Source: an uncultured Muribaculaceae bacterium (lineage in GTDB: Bacteria; Bacteroidota; Bacteroidia; Bacteroidales; Muribaculaceae). From it: a stretch of DNA of 64,000 bases. Positions 2,090 to 31,684 of the stretch are shown piece after piece. Made by a program: the position numbers and the translations under genes. Position 1 is the stretch's first letter. The number at the start of each line of letters is the position of its first letter. The notes under the pieces are model-generated. The model had not been told where the DNA came from. It worked only from the letters and a program-made list of their open reading frames with translations, and did no database searches. Where the stretch lies: positions 12,236-76,235 of the forward strand of contig CAMUND010000001.1 of NCBI GenBank assembly GCA_947090195.1. The letters run 5' to 3'.

Positions 2090-4099
2090 ATGAAAGTAAA
2101 AAGCTTATTAAAAATTGTACTTGGCTCACTGATTCTTGCGTCGTGTGCTCCCGAGATGGAGGAGATACCGGCGGAGGAACTCTACCTGCGTGATTTTATA
2201 AAGAAGTACGGTATCATCGATCCGAACCAAAACTGGAGTCTCGCTTCCAATGAAGTTATGAGTGTGAGAGGCGCAGGCGGTGCGGAGGCTAAAATCTATG
2301 TTGAAATCAAGGGCAAGCGATACATTGTCGCCGACTATAAGAATATAGCCGATCCCGCGGCTTTGACTTTTGACATCCCGTCGGGAATGAAGGATGTGAT
2401 AGTGAAGGTCAACGGCAAGGAGTACCCTACTAAAGTAGGCTCAACCGTCGACGCTTCCGCTGCAAGGTCAAGAGCAATTGCCGAAGGAACTAAAACTGTC
2501 GATGGGGTTACGTTGACATATGGTTATACTGAGGGAGAGAAGATAATATTTTCAAAATCAATTGATAATTTTTTAAAGTATATTCCTGAAGAGGTAAATA
2601 ATTCCGGGAATGTGATTTCTAACTTTTCTTTCGTATCTAAAAAGGATAAAGAAGTTATTTTTTACCCATTGTTTTGGAATACCAGTTCCTCTCATGTAGT
2701 GGGGGTTTATTGGTTTGATGAAAATGGTGATTTCAATTGGTTTGATGAAAGCAAGGAATATGCTCCCGGAAAACCGGAACCGGAAGGTGGATTTTATAGC
2801 CTTAATGGATGGGAATCGTCTAAATGGAATAAACCGGCGATAGATTACTCTCATATGCAGGATTTGTATTGGGTAAGGACCGGTGAATTAAAATATTGTG
2901 GGGATAAGCATGACAATATAAGTGACTATGAATCCTCAACGTTTGATGTACTGGCGAAATCTAATAGTTCGTATACACCTAATGATGGAGGCGCATTCAA
3001 AACTAAGGGTATAAAGTTCAAATTTAATAAAGATGGTATAAAATATGGATTTTATATTAAAGTTAAAAATGGTATTGATCCATTAGGCGGTCAGGAGGAT
3101 GGTAACTCTACAGTATTTGACCATATACTTTTCTCCCAGTCAAAAAGGAATGAACTTTTTGGTAAATTTGGAATATATAAAGTTTCCGATAATGATAATT
3201 ATATTGTTTCTGCCAAAAATATGACTGAAGAAATGGCAGAAAAGGTGTCATTTGAATCTAATTGGAGATTAGATGGGGATAAATCGTATAATAAATATGT
3301 ATGGAGTCATCCGTGGAAGGATGTCTCGGAGGGTGATGAGTATGTAAGTGCTTCTTATCTTACATTGCCATCGTCTGAAACCCATGATGGTAAAGTAAGG
3401 TCATTCTTTGCATTTGAAGATTGGCGAGAGAATAAGCCTGACTTGAATGATGTAGTGTTTATGTTCGAGGAAGAGCAGGATGTTGATATTATTGATGAGG
3501 ATGATCCTAATCCTCCGACTCCCCCTACCCCTGATGAGCCGCTGCCATGGACATTGGCTGTAGAGGACTTGGGCGAGAGCGATGACTATGATTTCAATGA
3601 CCTTGTGCTTGAAATAACTCATGTTGCCGGAACCAATGAAGCTACAGTAAAGGCACTTGCTGCCGGCGGTATTATGCCTATATATGTGAAATATGGCGAA
3701 GAGCTGATTGCCGAGACTCATGTGAACCAGTGGCTTGGTTCAAAGGACCACACTGTGATGATCAACACCGGTGCCGGTGCCACCGGAACTCATAGCACTC
3801 CTATTACTATAAAGGTTGGCGAGAACGAGAAGATTGATGACATCATCGCAAAGTTCACCATAGTAGTAAAGACCGGTGAAGGTGACGAAGAAGGAACTCG
3901 TGCAGTGGAGATAACCAAAACCAAACATGGTGAAGTGGGCACAACTCCATTGATGCTTCTGCTCGACCATGACTGGGAATGGCCTAAAGAACGAGTTTCG
4001 ATTGAGACTGCCTATCCTAAATTTACTGAATGGGTTGGTACTCCAGAAGTAGATTGGATTATCTCCAAAGTTGAAGAAAATGTAATAAAGAGACAATAA
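2090..4099 (+). CDS. LruC/DUF4842-type surface lipoprotein
   Basis: Lipoprotein signal (ILASC); C-terminal LAVEDLGESDDYDFNDLVL and LLLDHDWEWPKERVSIETAYPKFTEW motifs typical of the LruC/DUF4842 domain; Pro-rich linker NPPTPPTPDEP. Confidence 0.75.
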   Translation: MKVKSLLKIVLGSLILASCAPEMEEIPAEELYLRDFIKKYGIIDPNQNWSLASNEVMSVRGAGGAEAKIYVEIKGKRYIVADYKNIADPAALTFDIPSGMKDVIVKVNGKEYPTKVGSTVDASAARSRAIAEGTKTVDGVTLTYGYTEGEKIIFSKSIDNFLKYIPEEVNNSGNVISNFSFVSKKDKEVIFYPLFWNTSSSHVVGVYWFDENGDFNWFDESKEYAPGKPEPEGGFYSLNGWESSKWNKPAIDYSHMQDLYWVRTGELKYCGDKHDNISDYESSTFDVLAKSNSSYTPNDGGAFKTKGIKFKFNKDGIKYGFYIKVKNGIDPLGGQEDGNSTVFDHILFSQSKRNELFGKFGIYKVSDNDNYIVSAKNMTEEMAEKVSFESNWRLDGDKSYNKYVWSHPWKDVSEGDEYVSASYLTLPSSETHDGKVRSFFAFEDWRENKPDLNDVVFMFEEEQDVDIIDEDDPNPPTPPTPDEPLPWTLAVEDLGESDDYDFNDLVLEITHVAGTNEATVKALAAGGIMPIYVKYGEELIAETHVNQWLGSKDHTVMINTGAGATGTHSTPITIKVGENEKIDDIIAKFTIVVKTGEGDEEGTRAVEITKTKHGEVGTTPLMLLLDHDWEWPKERVSIETAYPKFTEWVGTPEVDWIISKVEENVIKRQ

Positions 4100-10018: not shown

Positions 10019-10254
10019 GTCGGGCAACTCGGGCTTCTCAGGTAACTCGGGCGACTCGGGGACAATTAAGGAACGTCATTCGACGTTCTTGTCGCATCAT
10101 TGTTCCGTTATACCCCACATTTCGCTGCGCTCAATGCGAGGCTTACAATAATGCATCGTCTTCGACGATGTTTTTCTCATGATGCTGTAGGGCAGGGTAA
10201 TTCGGGCTACTCGGGCTACTCAGGCTTCTCCGGCAACTCGGGCAACTCGGGCGG
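10019..10254. repeat. Two blocks of 9-bp tandem repeats (CTCGGGCnn) framing a nested-hairpin REP-like core
   Basis: 5 units at 10019-10063 and 6 units at 10201-10254. Hairpins GAACGTC-ATTC-GACGTTC (10071-10088) and CATCGTC-TTC-GACGATG (10154-10170). Inverted pair GCATCATTGT/ACAATAATGC. Confidence 0.85.
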
Positions 10255-10369
10255 GGTGGGACAAGCCGATGATGAGTTGTCGGGGATAGTTAGGAAAAAC
10301 AGGACACAAATTGGAGCTTTTGGGACGTGAATAATGAGTGAGGTTAAACTTTTGGAACTCTTTTTTTGT

Positions 10370-10377
10370 TAATTTTG
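10370..10377 (+). promoter_or_regulatory. Bacteroidetes -7 box for the efflux operon
   Basis: TAATTTTG about 70 bp upstream of the TolC start. Confidence 0.55.
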
Positions 10378-10447
10378 CAGATGTGTACGTAAAAGGGGAT
10401 AACACCCGTTTTTATGATGTTTAACCGACCAAAAGAGGGATAAAACT

Positions 10448-11902
10448 ATGCAAGGTAACTTACTGAAATATTTCCTGATAGCGGCTGTCACGATGGGCGT
10501 GGCAAAGATGGAGGCTCAGGAATTGACATCCTCAAGCATTGTTTCGCTTGACTCTTGCCGTCAGATGGCTCTTAACAACAATAAGCAGCTGCGGGTACAG
10601 GCTGAGAAGGTGAAGGCTGCCGGCTATCAGAAGAAAGAAGCGTTTGCGGCTTATCTTCCGGCTTTGGATTTCGCCGGAGGGTACGTTTACAACCAAAAGA
10701 ATATCTCGATATTTGACTCCGACCAGCATCTTCCGGTGCAGGTGTTTGACGGAAAAGGGTATCAGTTTGACCTTGTCACGGGTCCCGACGGGATTCCTGT
10801 AAAGGCTCCTGACGGCAGTTATATCCCTAAACAGGTGGCTTATCTGCCCAAAGATGCCATGACCTACGACATCCACAATGTGTTTTTCGGAGCGGTGACA
10901 CTCACGCAGCCTATATTCATGGGCGGAAAAATCGTGGCGATGAACAAACTCACCGACTATGCCAAGCAGCTTGCCGAATCGCTCCATGACAACGGGGCGG
11001 AGGATATAATCTACGCTGTGGACGCGGCTTACTGGCAAGTGGTGTCGCTAAAGGCTAAACATGAGCTTGCAGTGAAGTATGTGGCTCTTCTCGACACTCT
11101 GCATTATAATGTGAATGCCATGGTGGAGCAGGGTATAGCCACGCGAAGCGACCTCCTGACGGTGGATGTGAAGCTGAACAGCGCCAATGTGGACCTGGTG
11201 AAGGTGGAAAACGGACTTACTCTGTCGAGGATGGCTCTCGCCCAACTGTGCGGGCTGCCGGTGAACACGGTGTTCACGCTTGAGGATGAGGAGCTTGACC
11301 GTGACCGGCTGATGCCTGTAGCCACATCTTATAATATGGCTGACGTGTACAGCCGCCGCCACGACTTGCGCGCTCTTGAACTCGGGGTGAAAATCACCGA
11401 ACAGGAAAGCCGGGTGGCAATGTCGTCGATGCTTCCCAATCTTGCGCTTGTGGGCACTTACTCATTCTCCAACCCCAACATGTTCAACGGCTTCAAGAAG
11501 AAATTCAACGGTGCATTCTCGGTGGGAGCGACACTCACGATTCCTTTGTGGCACTGGGGCGGCAACTACAATAAATACCGCGCAGCCAAGACCAACGAAA
11601 CCATAATGAAGCTTCAGGTGGAGGACGCAAAGGAGAAAATACAGCTTCAAGTGAGCCAGGCGGCATTCAAAACCAATGAAGCGGAAAAGACTTACATCAT
11701 GACCAACGCCAACCTTGACAAGGCAAACGAAAATCTGCGCCAGGCAAACCTCGCTTTCCGTGAAGGAATGCAGACAGTGCAGAATGTGATGGAAGCGCAG
11801 ACCGCATGGCTTAAAGCCAACTCGGAGAACATCGACGCGGAAATAGACGTGAATCTGTGTCATGTCTATCTATCAAAAGTACTCGGAACTATGGAATATT
11901 AA
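10448..11902 (+). CDS. TolC-family outer membrane efflux protein
   Basis: Signal peptide, SLDSCRQMALNNN, AYLPALDF, LTQPIFMGGKI, TLTIPLWHWG; two OEP repeats. Confidence 0.9.
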   Translation: MQGNLLKYFLIAAVTMGVAKMEAQELTSSSIVSLDSCRQMALNNNKQLRVQAEKVKAAGYQKKEAFAAYLPALDFAGGYVYNQKNISIFDSDQHLPVQVFDGKGYQFDLVTGPDGIPVKAPDGSYIPKQVAYLPKDAMTYDIHNVFFGAVTLTQPIFMGGKIVAMNKLTDYAKQLAESLHDNGAEDIIYAVDAAYWQVVSLKAKHELAVKYVALLDTLHYNVNAMVEQGIATRSDLLTVDVKLNSANVDLVKVENGLTLSRMALAQLCGLPVNTVFTLEDEELDRDRLMPVATSYNMADVYSRRHDLRALELGVKITEQESRVAMSSMLPNLALVGTYSFSNPNMFNGFKKKFNGAFSVGATLTIPLWHWGGNYNKYRAAKTNETIMKLQVEDAKEKIQLQVSQAAFKTNEAEKTYIMTNANLDKANENLRQANLAFREGMQTVQNVMEAQTAWLKANSENIDAEIDVNLCHVYLSKVLGTMEY

Positions 11903-29824: not shown

Positions 29825-29899
29825 CGGGGTGTAGCTCAGCCAGGTTAGAGTACGCGTCTGGGGGGCGTGTGGTCGGAAGTTCGAATCTTCTCACCCCGA
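29825..29899 (+). tRNA. tRNA-Pro(GGG)
   Basis: CGGGGTG/CACCCCG acceptor stem, D arm GCTCAGCCAGGTTAGAGT, anticodon loop CT-GGG-GG, T arm GGAAG-TTCGAAT-CTTCT; no encoded CCA. Confidence 0.95.
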
Positions 29900-29907
29900 C
29901 ACTGAGC

Positions 29908-29936
29908 AAAAGGGATGCAATCGCATCCCTTTTTTT
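29908..29936 (+). terminator. Terminator of tRNA-Pro
   Basis: AAAAGGGATGC-AATC-GCATCCCTTTT hairpin with T tract. Confidence 0.85.
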
Positions 29937-29968: not shown

Positions 29969-30176
29969 CGTCCAAATGGCGGAACAAAATCCGTCCAAAT
30001 GGCGGAACAAAATTGTGTCAAGTTTGGAAATGAAATCGTGTCAAGTTCGGAGGTAGAATCATGTCAAGTTCGGAGGTAGAATCATGTCAAGTTCGGAAGT
30101 GAAATCGTGTCAAGTTAGGAAGCGAAATCGTGTCAAGTTTAGAAGTAAAATCATGTCAAGTTTGGAAATTAACTTC
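29969..30176. repeat. 23-bp tandem repeat array (2 type A units plus 7 type B units)
   Basis: A: CGTCCAAATGGCGGAACAAAAT(C/T) at 29969 and 29992. B: TGTCAAGTTnGGAAGTnAAATC(A/G)-like units at 30016, 30039, 30062, 30085, 30108, 30131 and 30154; the first 9 nt TGTCAAGTT are invariant. Confidence 0.92.
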
Positions 30177-30183
30177 TAAAATA

Positions 30184-30215
30184 TTTGGCTATTTCGCTGA
30201 AATGATGTAATTTTG
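30184..30215 (+). promoter_or_regulatory. Canonical Bacteroidetes sigma-70 promoter of the ATPase gene
   Basis: TTTG (30184-30187), 20-bp spacer, TAATTTTG (30208-30215). Confidence 0.75.
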
Positions 30216-30234
30216 CGCCATTAATACTGCAATT

Positions 30235-31524
30235 ATGGAAAATTATAGACCGAGAATCATGGATGCCATCCTTGAAGAAGAACTGGAGGCTATGGGTGCT
30301 GTGCTTTTAGAGGGTCCTAAAGCTTGCGGAAAAACCACTACTGCGGAACATGCCGTGGGGAGTGTCATATACATGGATGATCCTGTTCGCCGCAATCAAT
30401 ATCTGCAGATGGTGGATACCGACATTACCTATATTTTGTCGGGCAATGTTCCGCGCCTTATCGATGAATGGCAGTTGGCTACCAAGATATGGGATGCCGT
30501 GCGGTTTGAGGTCGACCATCGCCGCGACGACGGTCAATTTATCCTTACCGGCTCGGCGGTGCCTCCCAAGCGGGACCAAGCACAGATGATGCATTCCGGC
30601 ACAGGACGGTTTTCGTGGCTTAAGATGCGTCCCATGTCGCTGTGGGAGTCGGGCGAGTCGTCAGGGGATGTGAGTCTTGGCGAACTTTTCCGTATGCCTG
30701 CTTCGGAGCCTGTCAGGGGCGAAAATGCGTTGACTCTTAACGATATGGCATTTCTCGTTTGCCGCGGCGGTTGGCCCAAAGCAGTCCATAAAGGGCGCAG
30801 TAAGCTTGCTTTGCGTCAGGCGATAAACTACTATGAGGCAATAGTGCGTGTCGACATTTCACGTGTTGATGATGTCGAACGCGATGAACAGCGCACCCGT
30901 AGGATTATGCGCTCTTATGCCCGGCATCAAGGTGCGCAAGTGAGTGTGCAGACCATTCTTGACGATATTTCGGAGAACGATACCATGGAGTTGAGCGATA
31001 AAACCGTATACTCCTATATAAATGCGTTAAAACGGATTTTTGTGATTGAGGACATGCCGGCATGGAATCCCAATCTGAGAAGCAAGTCGGCAGTGCGCAG
31101 TTCCGACACCCGATATTATGTCGACCCGTCAGTGGCTTGCGCCGCGTTGGGGCTTGGTCCTGATGACCTGATAAATGATTTAAATACCTTCGGGCTGCTG
31201 TTTCAGGGCTTGTGCGTCAGGGATTTGCGGGTATATGCTCAGGCGTTGGACGGCACCGTCTACCATTTCCGGGACAGGACCGGGCTTGAGTGCGATGCCG
31301 TGGTGCATTTGCGTAACGGAAGTTACGGTTTGGTTGAAATAAAGTTGGGCGGTGAAAAGCTCGTCGAGGAGGGCACCAGGAATCTTCTTGCCTTAAAGGA
31401 CAAGATTGACACCACCAAGATGAAATCCCCGTCGTTCATGATGGTGCTGACTGCCGTGGGCGATTATGCCTACCGCCGCACCGACGGTGTGCTGGTCGTT
31501 CCCGTCGGCGCCCTGAAGCTTTGA
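30235..31524 (+). CDS. AAA+ ATPase with DUF4143/PD-(D/E)xK-like C-terminus (COG1373-type)
   Basis: Walker A GPKACGKTT, Walker B LIDEWQ, FILTGSA, HSGTGRF, YYVDPSVA, ECDAVVH...VEIKLGG. Confidence 0.85.
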   Translation: MENYRPRIMDAILEEELEAMGAVLLEGPKACGKTTTAEHAVGSVIYMDDPVRRNQYLQMVDTDITYILSGNVPRLIDEWQLATKIWDAVRFEVDHRRDDGQFILTGSAVPPKRDQAQMMHSGTGRFSWLKMRPMSLWESGESSGDVSLGELFRMPASEPVRGENALTLNDMAFLVCRGGWPKAVHKGRSKLALRQAINYYEAIVRVDISRVDDVERDEQRTRRIMRSYARHQGAQVSVQTILDDISENDTMELSDKTVYSYINALKRIFVIEDMPAWNPNLRSKSAVRSSDTRYYVDPSVACAALGLGPDDLINDLNTFGLLFQGLCVRDLRVYAQALDGTVYHFRDRTGLECDAVVHLRNGSYGLVEIKLGGEKLVEEGTRNLLALKDKIDTTKMKSPSFMMVLTAVGDYAYRRTDGVLVVPVGALKL

Positions 31525-31684
31525 TTCTTCGCCGTAGGCGTGAATCTCGTATATCCTCGAACCCCATCGGGGGCGGCTCCATTGTTCCGCCACGGCGCAG
31601 TTTTTTGCATTTTTTTGCCGCAAATACTTGACAAGGGCTTTTTTATATATTAATTTTGCACTATATTTGACCAAGAAGGTATTT

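Follow-up and report, generated by a model that had tools for sequence, protein, structure and literature searches.

What does a tandem array of short repeats do when it lies directly upstream of the promoter of a stand-alone ATPase gene? We addressed this question for a locus in a 64,000-nucleotide (nt) stretch of the Muribaculaceae contig CAMUND010000001.1 (the whole stretch that was analyzed is termed the window here), from a genome of 2.69 Mb, in which nine 23-bp units precede a gene for a 429-amino-acid (aa) AAA_14/DUF4143 protein that matches the PADLOC candidate PDC-S01. An earlier note on this DNA had offered three functions for the array, namely, a loading or autoregulatory platform for the ATPase, a decoy or sensor in a defense module, and a copy-number-variable promoter tuner. 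Among these, the comparative data favor the first, based on the strict register between array and promoter and on the match between the repeats and the recognition helix of the protein. We found that array and gene constitute a co-inherited, co-evolving pair, in which predicted binding sites, arrayed in phase with the promoter, accompany a predicted winged-helix AAA+ nuclease.

Nine 23-bp units in register with a promoter

Tandem Repeats Finder (TRF) reported two period-23 arrays, at positions 29969 to 30013 (2.0 copies, 100% match) and 30009 to 30167 (6.9 copies, 85% match). In a common register, they resolve into nine contiguous 23-bp units, starting at 29970, 29993, 30016, 30039, 30062, 30085, 30108, 30131, and 30154 and ending at 30176. 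The division into two plus seven units of different types and the identity of the units at 30039 and 30062, both of which the earlier note had described, are thus reproduced. The two promoter-distal units, termed type 1 (29970 to 30015, forward strand; TRF, 100% match), read GTCCAA-ATGGCGG-AA-CAAAATnn, and the seven type-2 units (30016 to 30176, forward strand; TRF and motif enrichment) read TGTCAA-GTTnGGA-AG-nnAAATCn. The array contains the motif TGTCAAGTT seven times, and the remainder of the 64-kb window contains it once, versus a mean of 0.48 occurrences in shuffled windows, and 0 of 100 shuffles reached eight. Since the type-2 array has no second occurrence in its own genome (2.69 Mb), the repeat is not scattered over unrelated loci. 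The units follow each other without spacers and no cas-like gene lies near the array, in agreement with the initial view that this is not a CRISPR array.

The promoter is of the Bacteroidota type (30184 to 30215, forward strand, from the sequence), with a −33 element TTTG at 30184 to 30187, located 7 bases past the end of the array, and a −7 box TAATTTTG at 30208 to 30215, with 20 nt between the two; the ATG follows at 30235. The last array unit begins 54 nt 5′ of the −7 box, and the promoter is in register with the array. One structural claim did not survive: the conserved heads of the units had been thought to lie on nearly the same face of the DNA, but 23 bp corresponds to ∼2.19 helical turns, so that neighboring units are rotated by ∼60 to 70° and do not share one face.

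The array accompanies the gene across phyla

We then looked into the distribution of the gene and of its array. The gene is patchy, being present in 14 of 41 genomes (40 relatives plus the window's own), and a period-23 array was found 5′ of the promoter in nearly every copy among those relatives, by eye and with TRF. A scan of one genome per prokaryotic species added 80 homologues (57 to 79% identity) from Bacteroidota, Clostridia, Bacilli, Negativicutes, Treponema, Fibrobacter, Victivallis, Sutterella, and Actinobacteria, mainly gut and rumen organisms. The resulting comparison set comprises 98 homologues with 41 to 80% identity, from at least six phyla. TRF detected a period of 22 to 24 within 450 bp upstream in 83 of the 97 assessable loci, and the loci that it missed mostly have two units at 23-bp pitch, as judged by eye. 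When lags of 8 to 44 were compared, lag 23 gave the best upstream self-match in 91/96 loci, and in 95 downstream control regions it did not rank among the eight most frequent best lags; the mean lag-23 score was 37.0 upstream versus 18.1 downstream, of a maximum of 46. The TRF survey that the earlier note had proposed therefore came out in favor of arrays upstream of homologues.

The anatomy of the units is conserved as well. With the arrays phased to a common register, unit bases 1 to 6 (nGCCAA) and 14 and 15 (AA) are conserved and bases 16 to 21 are A rich, whereas bases 7 to 13 differ between loci but are constant inside each locus. Every array has the same orientation relative to its gene. 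At loci with the Bacteroidota −7 box TAnnTTTG, units start 30 to 32 nt, plus multiples of 23, upstream of that box, and at sigma70-type promoters the distance from the unit start to the −10 box peaks at 42 to 43 nt, which makes the −35 hexamer coincide with the tail of the final unit. We also considered a polarity of unit decay and discarded it, given the only slight excess divergence of the most distal unit (identity of 0.91 versus 0.94).

Loci carry 2 to 10 units, usually 3 or 4, and the nine units of the window are among the longest arrays. Because arrays can break short-read assemblies, copy numbers in metagenome-assembled genomes are lower bounds. In Logan unitigs of four gut runs (rat and mouse), exact matches on both sides of the array break at the two identical units, and raw reads are 1 to 4× deep. 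The idea of a copy-number-variable tuner thus holds insofar as unit number differs between loci, and no variation within a population emerged from these shallow data and broken unitigs.

Individual loci add the following observations. The array of the Sangeribacter homologue (L024) contains an N run, i.e., a scaffold gap, at ∼1400 to 1510, a point of relevance for assembly. At L047 (3780 to 3890), the same array is found on both flanks of the gene. At L023 (210 to 290), a second array with a promoter-like sequence lies 2.1 kb upstream, before tenA- and EamA-family genes, and this copy could be a captured regulatory array. In full-text searches on DUF4143, PDC-S01, COG1373, and AAA_14 with direct repeats, we found no published description of upstream arrays, of a recognition code, or of autoregulation.

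A residue of the recognition helix covaries with unit bases 11 to 13

We then compared protein columns with unit bases over 90 loci. Of all protein columns, residue 256 shares the most mutual information with the unit, and it couples to bases 11, 12, and 13. It precedes the invariant T257 and sits at the N terminus of helix 255-267 in the AlphaFold2 model, the predicted recognition helix of a winged-helix domain (30997 to 31035, forward strand; assigned from the model, mutual information, and a tree-aware test). D256 is found with CCG (22/29) or CCA at bases 11 to 13, E256 with CCA or CGG, K256 with GGA, GGT, or GGG, and N256 with CAC. Amino acids have known base preferences, Lys for G, Asp or Glu for C, and Asn for A, and the residue-256 pairs agree with them. 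The covariation of the repeat sequence with the protein, which the earlier note had put forward as a test, is thus found between this residue and these three bases.

A tree computed with the helix region left out requires at least 28 changes of residue 256, with K and N originating several times, in separate clades, and pairing with the same bases there. Of the 32 sister pairs compared, 9/9 with differing residue 256 also differ at bases 11 to 13, versus 8/23 of those sharing the residue (Fisher P = 0.001). Given these repeated changes and the sister-pair result, the covariation does not stem from shared ancestry alone.

The window's protein has K256 (codon at 31000 to 31002, forward strand), and its helix ELSDKTVYSYI is identical in the closest relatives, L023 and L024. 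The units read TGTCAA-ATAAGGA at L023 and TGCCAA-GTTTGGA at L024, and all three arrays have GGA at bases 11 to 13. By this comparison, the type-2 units are the predicted cognate array of the resident K256 protein.

The protein is a predicted winged-helix AAA+ ATPase with a nuclease domain

We then analyzed the protein, encoded at 30235 to 31524 on the forward strand and characterized with Pfam, PADLOC, AlphaFold2, and Foldseek. Pfam AAA_14 covers residues 22 to 138 (E = 1.3e-11) and DUF4143 covers residues 207 to 371 (E = 6.3e-31), both above the gathering score, and residues 1 to 427 match positions 8 to 417 of the 422 positions of the PDC-S01 profile (PDLC04790; E = 8.5e-60). The AlphaFold2 model (77 sequences; pLDDT, 92.5; pTM, 0.92) comprises an AAA+ core and lid (∼1 to 230), a winged helix (∼231 to 296; helix 238-246, helix 255-267, and a beta-hairpin wing at 271 to 295), and a C-terminal alpha/beta nuclease domain of the PD-(D/E)xK type (∼298 to 429). 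Foldseek against the PDB retrieved 2fna, Orc1/Cdc6 on origin DNA (2qby), plant NLR NB-ARC, ORC, and RFC/clamp loaders, which have in common a succession of nucleotide-binding domain, lid, and winged helix. A PDB sequence search detected no relative of the protein, and NCBIfam has no model for it. The best structural match, the archaeal AAA+ ATPase SSO1545 (2fna; Foldseek E = 1.1e-5; TM score, 0.42 to 0.49), has 14% identity and an uncharacterized function and hence offers no mechanistic guidance.

The sequence contains the motifs GPKACGKT, LIDEWQ, D354, and VEIK. In the family alignment, the Walker A and B motifs and residues R125, E352, E368, and K370 do not vary, and 97/98 members have D354; this conservation of ATPase and nuclease residues indicates that the protein does more than regulate itself. 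The Walker A/B and nuclease-like motifs reported earlier for the 429-aa product are therefore present, with one qualification for the nuclease: residue 324, in the first helix of that domain, is Q (codon CAG at 31204 to 31206, forward strand), where 96/98 family members have E according to the alignment column counts. Q324 is identical in contigs of three independent rat and mouse gut DNA runs, and 9 of the 12 differences in a related strain are synonymous. Since Q324 replaces the family's E, the nuclease activity of this copy may be attenuated, with the binding and ATPase functions kept.

Type-1 units and other family copies in the genome

Type-1 units have the same 23-bp frame as type-2 units, a differing variable core, and CGG at bases 11 to 13. 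All three proteins that share this recognition helix have GGA as their partner, and type 1 is hence unlikely to be the preferred site; these units are probably noncognate or a relic. K256 proteins paired with CGG or GGG exist (L015 and L089), and binding of type-1 units by a K256 protein is conceivable.

The type-1 14-mer TCCAAATGGCGGAA recurs in a gene-less array of three units on contig C84 of the same genome (L165, ∼3130 to 3200, minus strand; units TCCAAACATCGGAAC..., GTCCAAATGGCGGAA..., and GTCCAAAGTCTCAAA...), after which there is no DUF4143 open reading frame (ORF). A scan of 401 family genomes for type 1 returned only one further gene-less array. Found in another genus, it consists of three type-1-like units and lies directly 5′ of the pheS promoter (L163, genome G359, contig C45, 6705 to 6741, minus strand); the two DUF4143 genes of that genome (L166 and L167) have their own, differing arrays. 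Raw reads of other gut samples hold longer type-1 arrays. A search for the cognate gene with two-unit type-1 patterns gave no match in JGI metagenomes or IMG/VR, and the type-2 pattern gave none in IMG/VR.

Two more loci of the same genome hold partial copies. On contig C5 (63863 to 64008, minus strand), deletion has joined a five-unit array (CACCACAAAAACTCCGATT...) to fragments from the middle and the C-terminal part of the gene, and on contig C3 (61849 to 62097, minus strand), a C-terminal gene fragment is followed by a three-unit array (TGCCAAATTACCGAA...). Both look as if they were eroded tandem modules. The genome thus shows turnover of such modules.

The genome has six DUF4143 genes. Besides the gene of the window (contig C1), with its nine 23-bp units upstream, those on C51 and C64 have 32-bp repeats (3 perfect copies and 6.5 copies, respectively), the one on C56 has a 40-bp repeat (2.3 copies), the one on C53 has its best self-match at lag 40 (score of 0.65 of 1) and no TRF array, and the one on C52 has no array. 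The C51 gene (L175, ∼10027 to 11046) is a paralogue with 21% identity; its 32-bp repeats abut the promoter, and a 16-bp repeat, GATAACTGGACAACCG, is present in 3 copies farther upstream. Elsewhere in the class, 29 further family members commonly have periods of 32 to 33 bp, and some genes have no array, from which we conclude that the array period is subfamily specific. These differences between subfamilies suggest a pitch set by the geometry of the protein rather than by DNA phase.

Boundaries, spread, and expression of the module

DNA similarity to the closest relatives (79% and 77% protein identity) extends from the array to the stop codon only. The 142 immediate neighbors of the 80 homologues cover 157 Pfam families, of which the sole recurrent one corresponds to another AAA_14/DUF4143 gene (5 times), and no enrichment of defense genes was found among them. 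In view of these homology limits and of the absence of a conserved neighbor, the module consists of array, promoter, and ORF, without a partner, and measures ∼1.6 kb. This fits the stand-alone, patchily distributed gene that the earlier note had described, and a picture of horizontal transfer also holds. A homologue is present on 9 of 72,556 plasmid records and in 4 of 50,697 phage records. COG1373 has been listed among the genes repeatedly shared between gut genera (PMC10782964).

The upstream border of the module in the window is a tRNA-Pro(GGG) gene (29825 to 29900, forward strand; ARAGORN; Rfam tRNA, 55 bits). Its intrinsic terminator hairpin (29908 to 29933, forward strand; an 11-pair stem and then a T run in the terminator scan) insulates the array against transcription from upstream. 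The order of tRNA-Pro terminator, array, and canonical promoter is thus as first reported. The wider neighborhood is a housekeeping one: genes for RNase R and a GyrB/ParE-type topoisomerase subunit flank the module on one side, and ftsX, uppP, truB, and queA follow on the other.

In run X24, which was typed as RNA with some uncertainty, one contig extends over the gene from a start at 30196, and none covers the array; the run's word depth on the gene is lower than on the neighbors. In another metatranscriptome, the flanking genes were covered and the ATPase gene was not. These data are weak evidence for an untranscribed array and low expression of the gene.

A proposed binding platform for autoregulation and its alternatives

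It is very likely, judging from the conserved arrays and their pairing with the helix, that the protein physically binds the array. We consider it reasonably probable that the array is a cognate, co-inherited DNA-binding platform, on which cooperative head-to-tail binding controls the gene's own promoter. In such a mechanism, one 23-bp unit would be one binding site of the winged-helix domain. Recognition helix 255-267, with residue 256 leading, would read bases 7 to 13, chiefly 11 to 13, and invariant parts of the protein, perhaps the basic wing, may recognize the GCCAA box and the AA dinucleotide. Because the units share their orientation, a fixed 23-bp pitch, and a fixed promoter register, the protomers would be aligned head to tail, as the sharing of ATP sites by AAA+ proteins needs, and would form a cooperative oligomer beside the −33/−35 element. 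This oligomer, probably ATP dependent, would set its own transcription. We favor negative autoregulation, by which an ATP-dependent nuclease would be held at a low, buffered level. The module would be exchanged horizontally among gut and rumen bacteria, and its specificity would diversify such that each copy has a private array.

Several known systems resemble this arrangement. Plasmid iterons with an autoregulated Rep gene (P1, F, R6K, pPS10, and RK2) are also direct repeats of ∼22 to 23 bp beside the gene of their binder, with private specificity groups. The likeness is one of layout only: Rep proteins have a WH1-WH2 organization and act in plasmid origins, whereas the module described here encodes an AAA_14/DUF4143 protein, is chromosomal, and is rare on plasmids. 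Short direct-repeat arrays at the promoter of the binder's own operon, cooperative binding, and autoregulation are likewise features of R1 ParR-parC and of pSM19035 omega, but these binders are small ribbon-helix-helix proteins with a separate motor, whereas ATPase, winged helix, and nuclease are combined here in one 429-aa protein. Archaeal Orc1/Cdc6 and its origin recognition boxes may be alike in AAA+ core, lid, and winged helix, to judge from the fold search, and have repeated elements that adjoin the binder's own gene; assembly of an oligomer on DNA is plausibly shared. The Foldseek matches to 2qby_A and 2qby_B have E values of ∼1e-5 with TM scores of 0.21 to 0.25, and a reading of the boxes by the winged helix is drawn from the covariation. 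However, the structural similarity is low (TM scores of 0.2 to 0.4), there is no detectable sequence similarity, and the present protein has an extra PD-(D/E)xK domain. The array also differs in its tandem, one-direction units, in its phasing to the promoter, and in the many private copies per genome.

Several points weigh against autoregulation from a binding platform. Every step of the mechanism past the co-occurrence of array and gene is one that we infer. The last full unit stops upstream of the −33/−35 element and not over it, a position equally typical of activators and repressors. A degenerate promoter-proximal unit, which could have been the basis of repression, was rejected as marginal (7.4 matches versus 6.2 to 6.8 in controls; P ∼ 0.02). 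Shared ancestry can inflate covariation, and the sister-pair test comprises 32 pairs only. Some DUF4143 subfamilies have no array, and the RNA evidence consists of assembled contigs from a run whose type was guessed. Finally, simple autoregulation needs neither 3 to 10 sites nor conserved ATPase and nuclease residues, and the array therefore probably does more than tune a promoter.

PDC-S01 has the same full-length profile match, the same AAA_14 plus DUF4143 architecture, and the same status of a single gene without a conserved partner, but its published definition includes the protein only, as opposed to array and protein here. It is ranked fourth by frequency among the defense candidates of prokaryotes, with ∼39,000 detected copies and validation pending (PMC12988326), and no other single locus was as frequent in a survey of 6,530 rumen genomes (PMC13356809). 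The array might be viewed as a resting-state or licensing platform of an immune nuclease, which would chiefly nucleate and hold an inactive AAA+ nuclease oligomer on the host chromosome, to be set free or switched on upon infection or loss of supply, with promoter control as a by-product. A PDC-S01 match, the family-wide conservation of ATPase and nuclease residues, and a fold that resembles STAND/NB-ARC immune ATPases as well as Orc1/Cdc6 would all suit such a role; so would the patchy distribution with its high turnover, as seen from the decayed copies and gene-less arrays in the window's own genome, and the private specificities, which suggest selection against cross talk. Yet the one PDC-S01 representative tested in E. 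coli B did not figure among the systems protecting against T4, T5, or T7 (10.1101/2024.09.26.614923), the context in the window is a housekeeping one without defense enrichment near the 80 homologues, a licensing platform does not require strict promoter phasing, and the window's own copy has Q324. We regard this explanation as unlikely, although it is the strongest competitor.

That the array is instead an att- or cassette-like cis site for insertion, exchange, or deletion, with the nuclease-ATPase as the enzyme, appears very unlikely to us. Homologues with ∼60% identity across phyla and the recurrent sharing of COG1373 between gut genera agree with mobility, as do homology that begins exactly at the array and stops at the stop codon, the flanking and second arrays at L047 and L023, the mixture of two unit types in the window, and the existence of gene-less arrays. 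However, tandem duplication and deletion explain flanking and solo arrays equally well (compare the decayed copies on C3 and C5), the array lies on one side only except at L047, no recombinase travels with the module among the neighbors of the 80 homologues, and we found neither an inverted copy nor a terminal inverted repeat or a target-site duplication; neither covariation nor promoter phasing is predicted by a mobility site. An iteron- or origin recognition box-like replication or partition site of an Orc1/Cdc6-like initiator, left by an integrated or former extrachromosomal element, seems less probable still. Direct repeats at 23-bp pitch do adjoin the gene of a presumed DNA-binding AAA+/winged-helix protein whose Foldseek matches include origin-bound Orc1/Cdc6 (2qby), but context argues against an origin function: a single gene stands in a housekeeping neighborhood, the genome has six DUF4143 genes, plasmid and phage records rarely hold the gene, a conserved nuclease domain is unexpected for an initiator, and the array is phased to a promoter, with no unwinding element or element borders seen. 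Finally, an intergenic tandem repeat with two identical units, suggestive of recent duplication, might be a functionless product of replication slippage, or the array might act as a guide-like or small RNA. Both are highly improbable, since the array lies between a terminator and a promoter without coverage by RNA contigs, has no spacers, and gave no Rfam match above chance (in Rfam 15, the tRNA alone passes, and other matches have E ≥ 0.6, far under gathering scores), and since slippage cannot explain the cross-phylum 23-bp pitch, the orientation, the box structure, and the covariation with the protein.

Among these explanations, we retain the cognate platform that controls its own promoter. 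Beyond regulating itself, the protein may act in defense, anchored surveillance, or DNA transactions at the array. A bolder extension, to which we give little credence for now, would make DUF4143/PDC-S01 a very large family of sequence-programmable, ATP-driven nucleases with a short readable code, from residue 256 and its helix neighbors to bases 11 to 13. The private array would build and restrain the oligomer, and gene-less arrays or arrays before other genes (C84, pheS in G359, and tenA at L023) would be secondary docking sites acting on other loci; the true role would then be a new chromosome-anchored surveillance or gene control and not classical phage restriction. A co-evolving cis element and a residue-to-base rule make the orphan PDC-S01 family directly testable: a binding site can be predicted in advance for each PDC-S01 copy, and specificity swaps are predictable (K256 with GGA versus D256 with CCG). 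For genome annotation, such arrays would count as functional elements and not as junk repeats.

Flanking sequences and minor observations

In an empty-site comparison, ftsX and tRNA-Pro were found in up to 30 congeners, but synteny was not conserved and other genes follow tRNA-Pro, such that neither a clean empty site nor an insertion scar could be delimited. The content of the tRNA-Pro 3′ flank varies among congeners. In one of them (L135, G017), the ORF 3′ of tRNA-Pro resembles, by eye, a Bacteroidales tyrosine integrase, and another (L153, G003) has a threefold tandem tRNA Gly-Leu-Pro cluster with a 352-bp period.

A candidate terminal inverted repeat, TTGTTCCGCCA (31582 to 31592, 58 nt past the stop codon), is an 11-nt perfect inverted match to the type-1 core and was rejected as being at chance level. 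It lies within a GGCGG...CCGCC hairpin followed by a T run, pairs of 11 nt of equal quality occur elsewhere in the same 3.5 kb at about the rate that we estimate for chance, and no homologue has an inverted unit. Elsewhere in the window, TCGGGCAAC and TCGGGCTAC form tandem repeats with a 9-bp period, at 10020 to 10060 (4.6 copies) and 10202 to 10252 (5.7 copies), respectively, which are probably coding.

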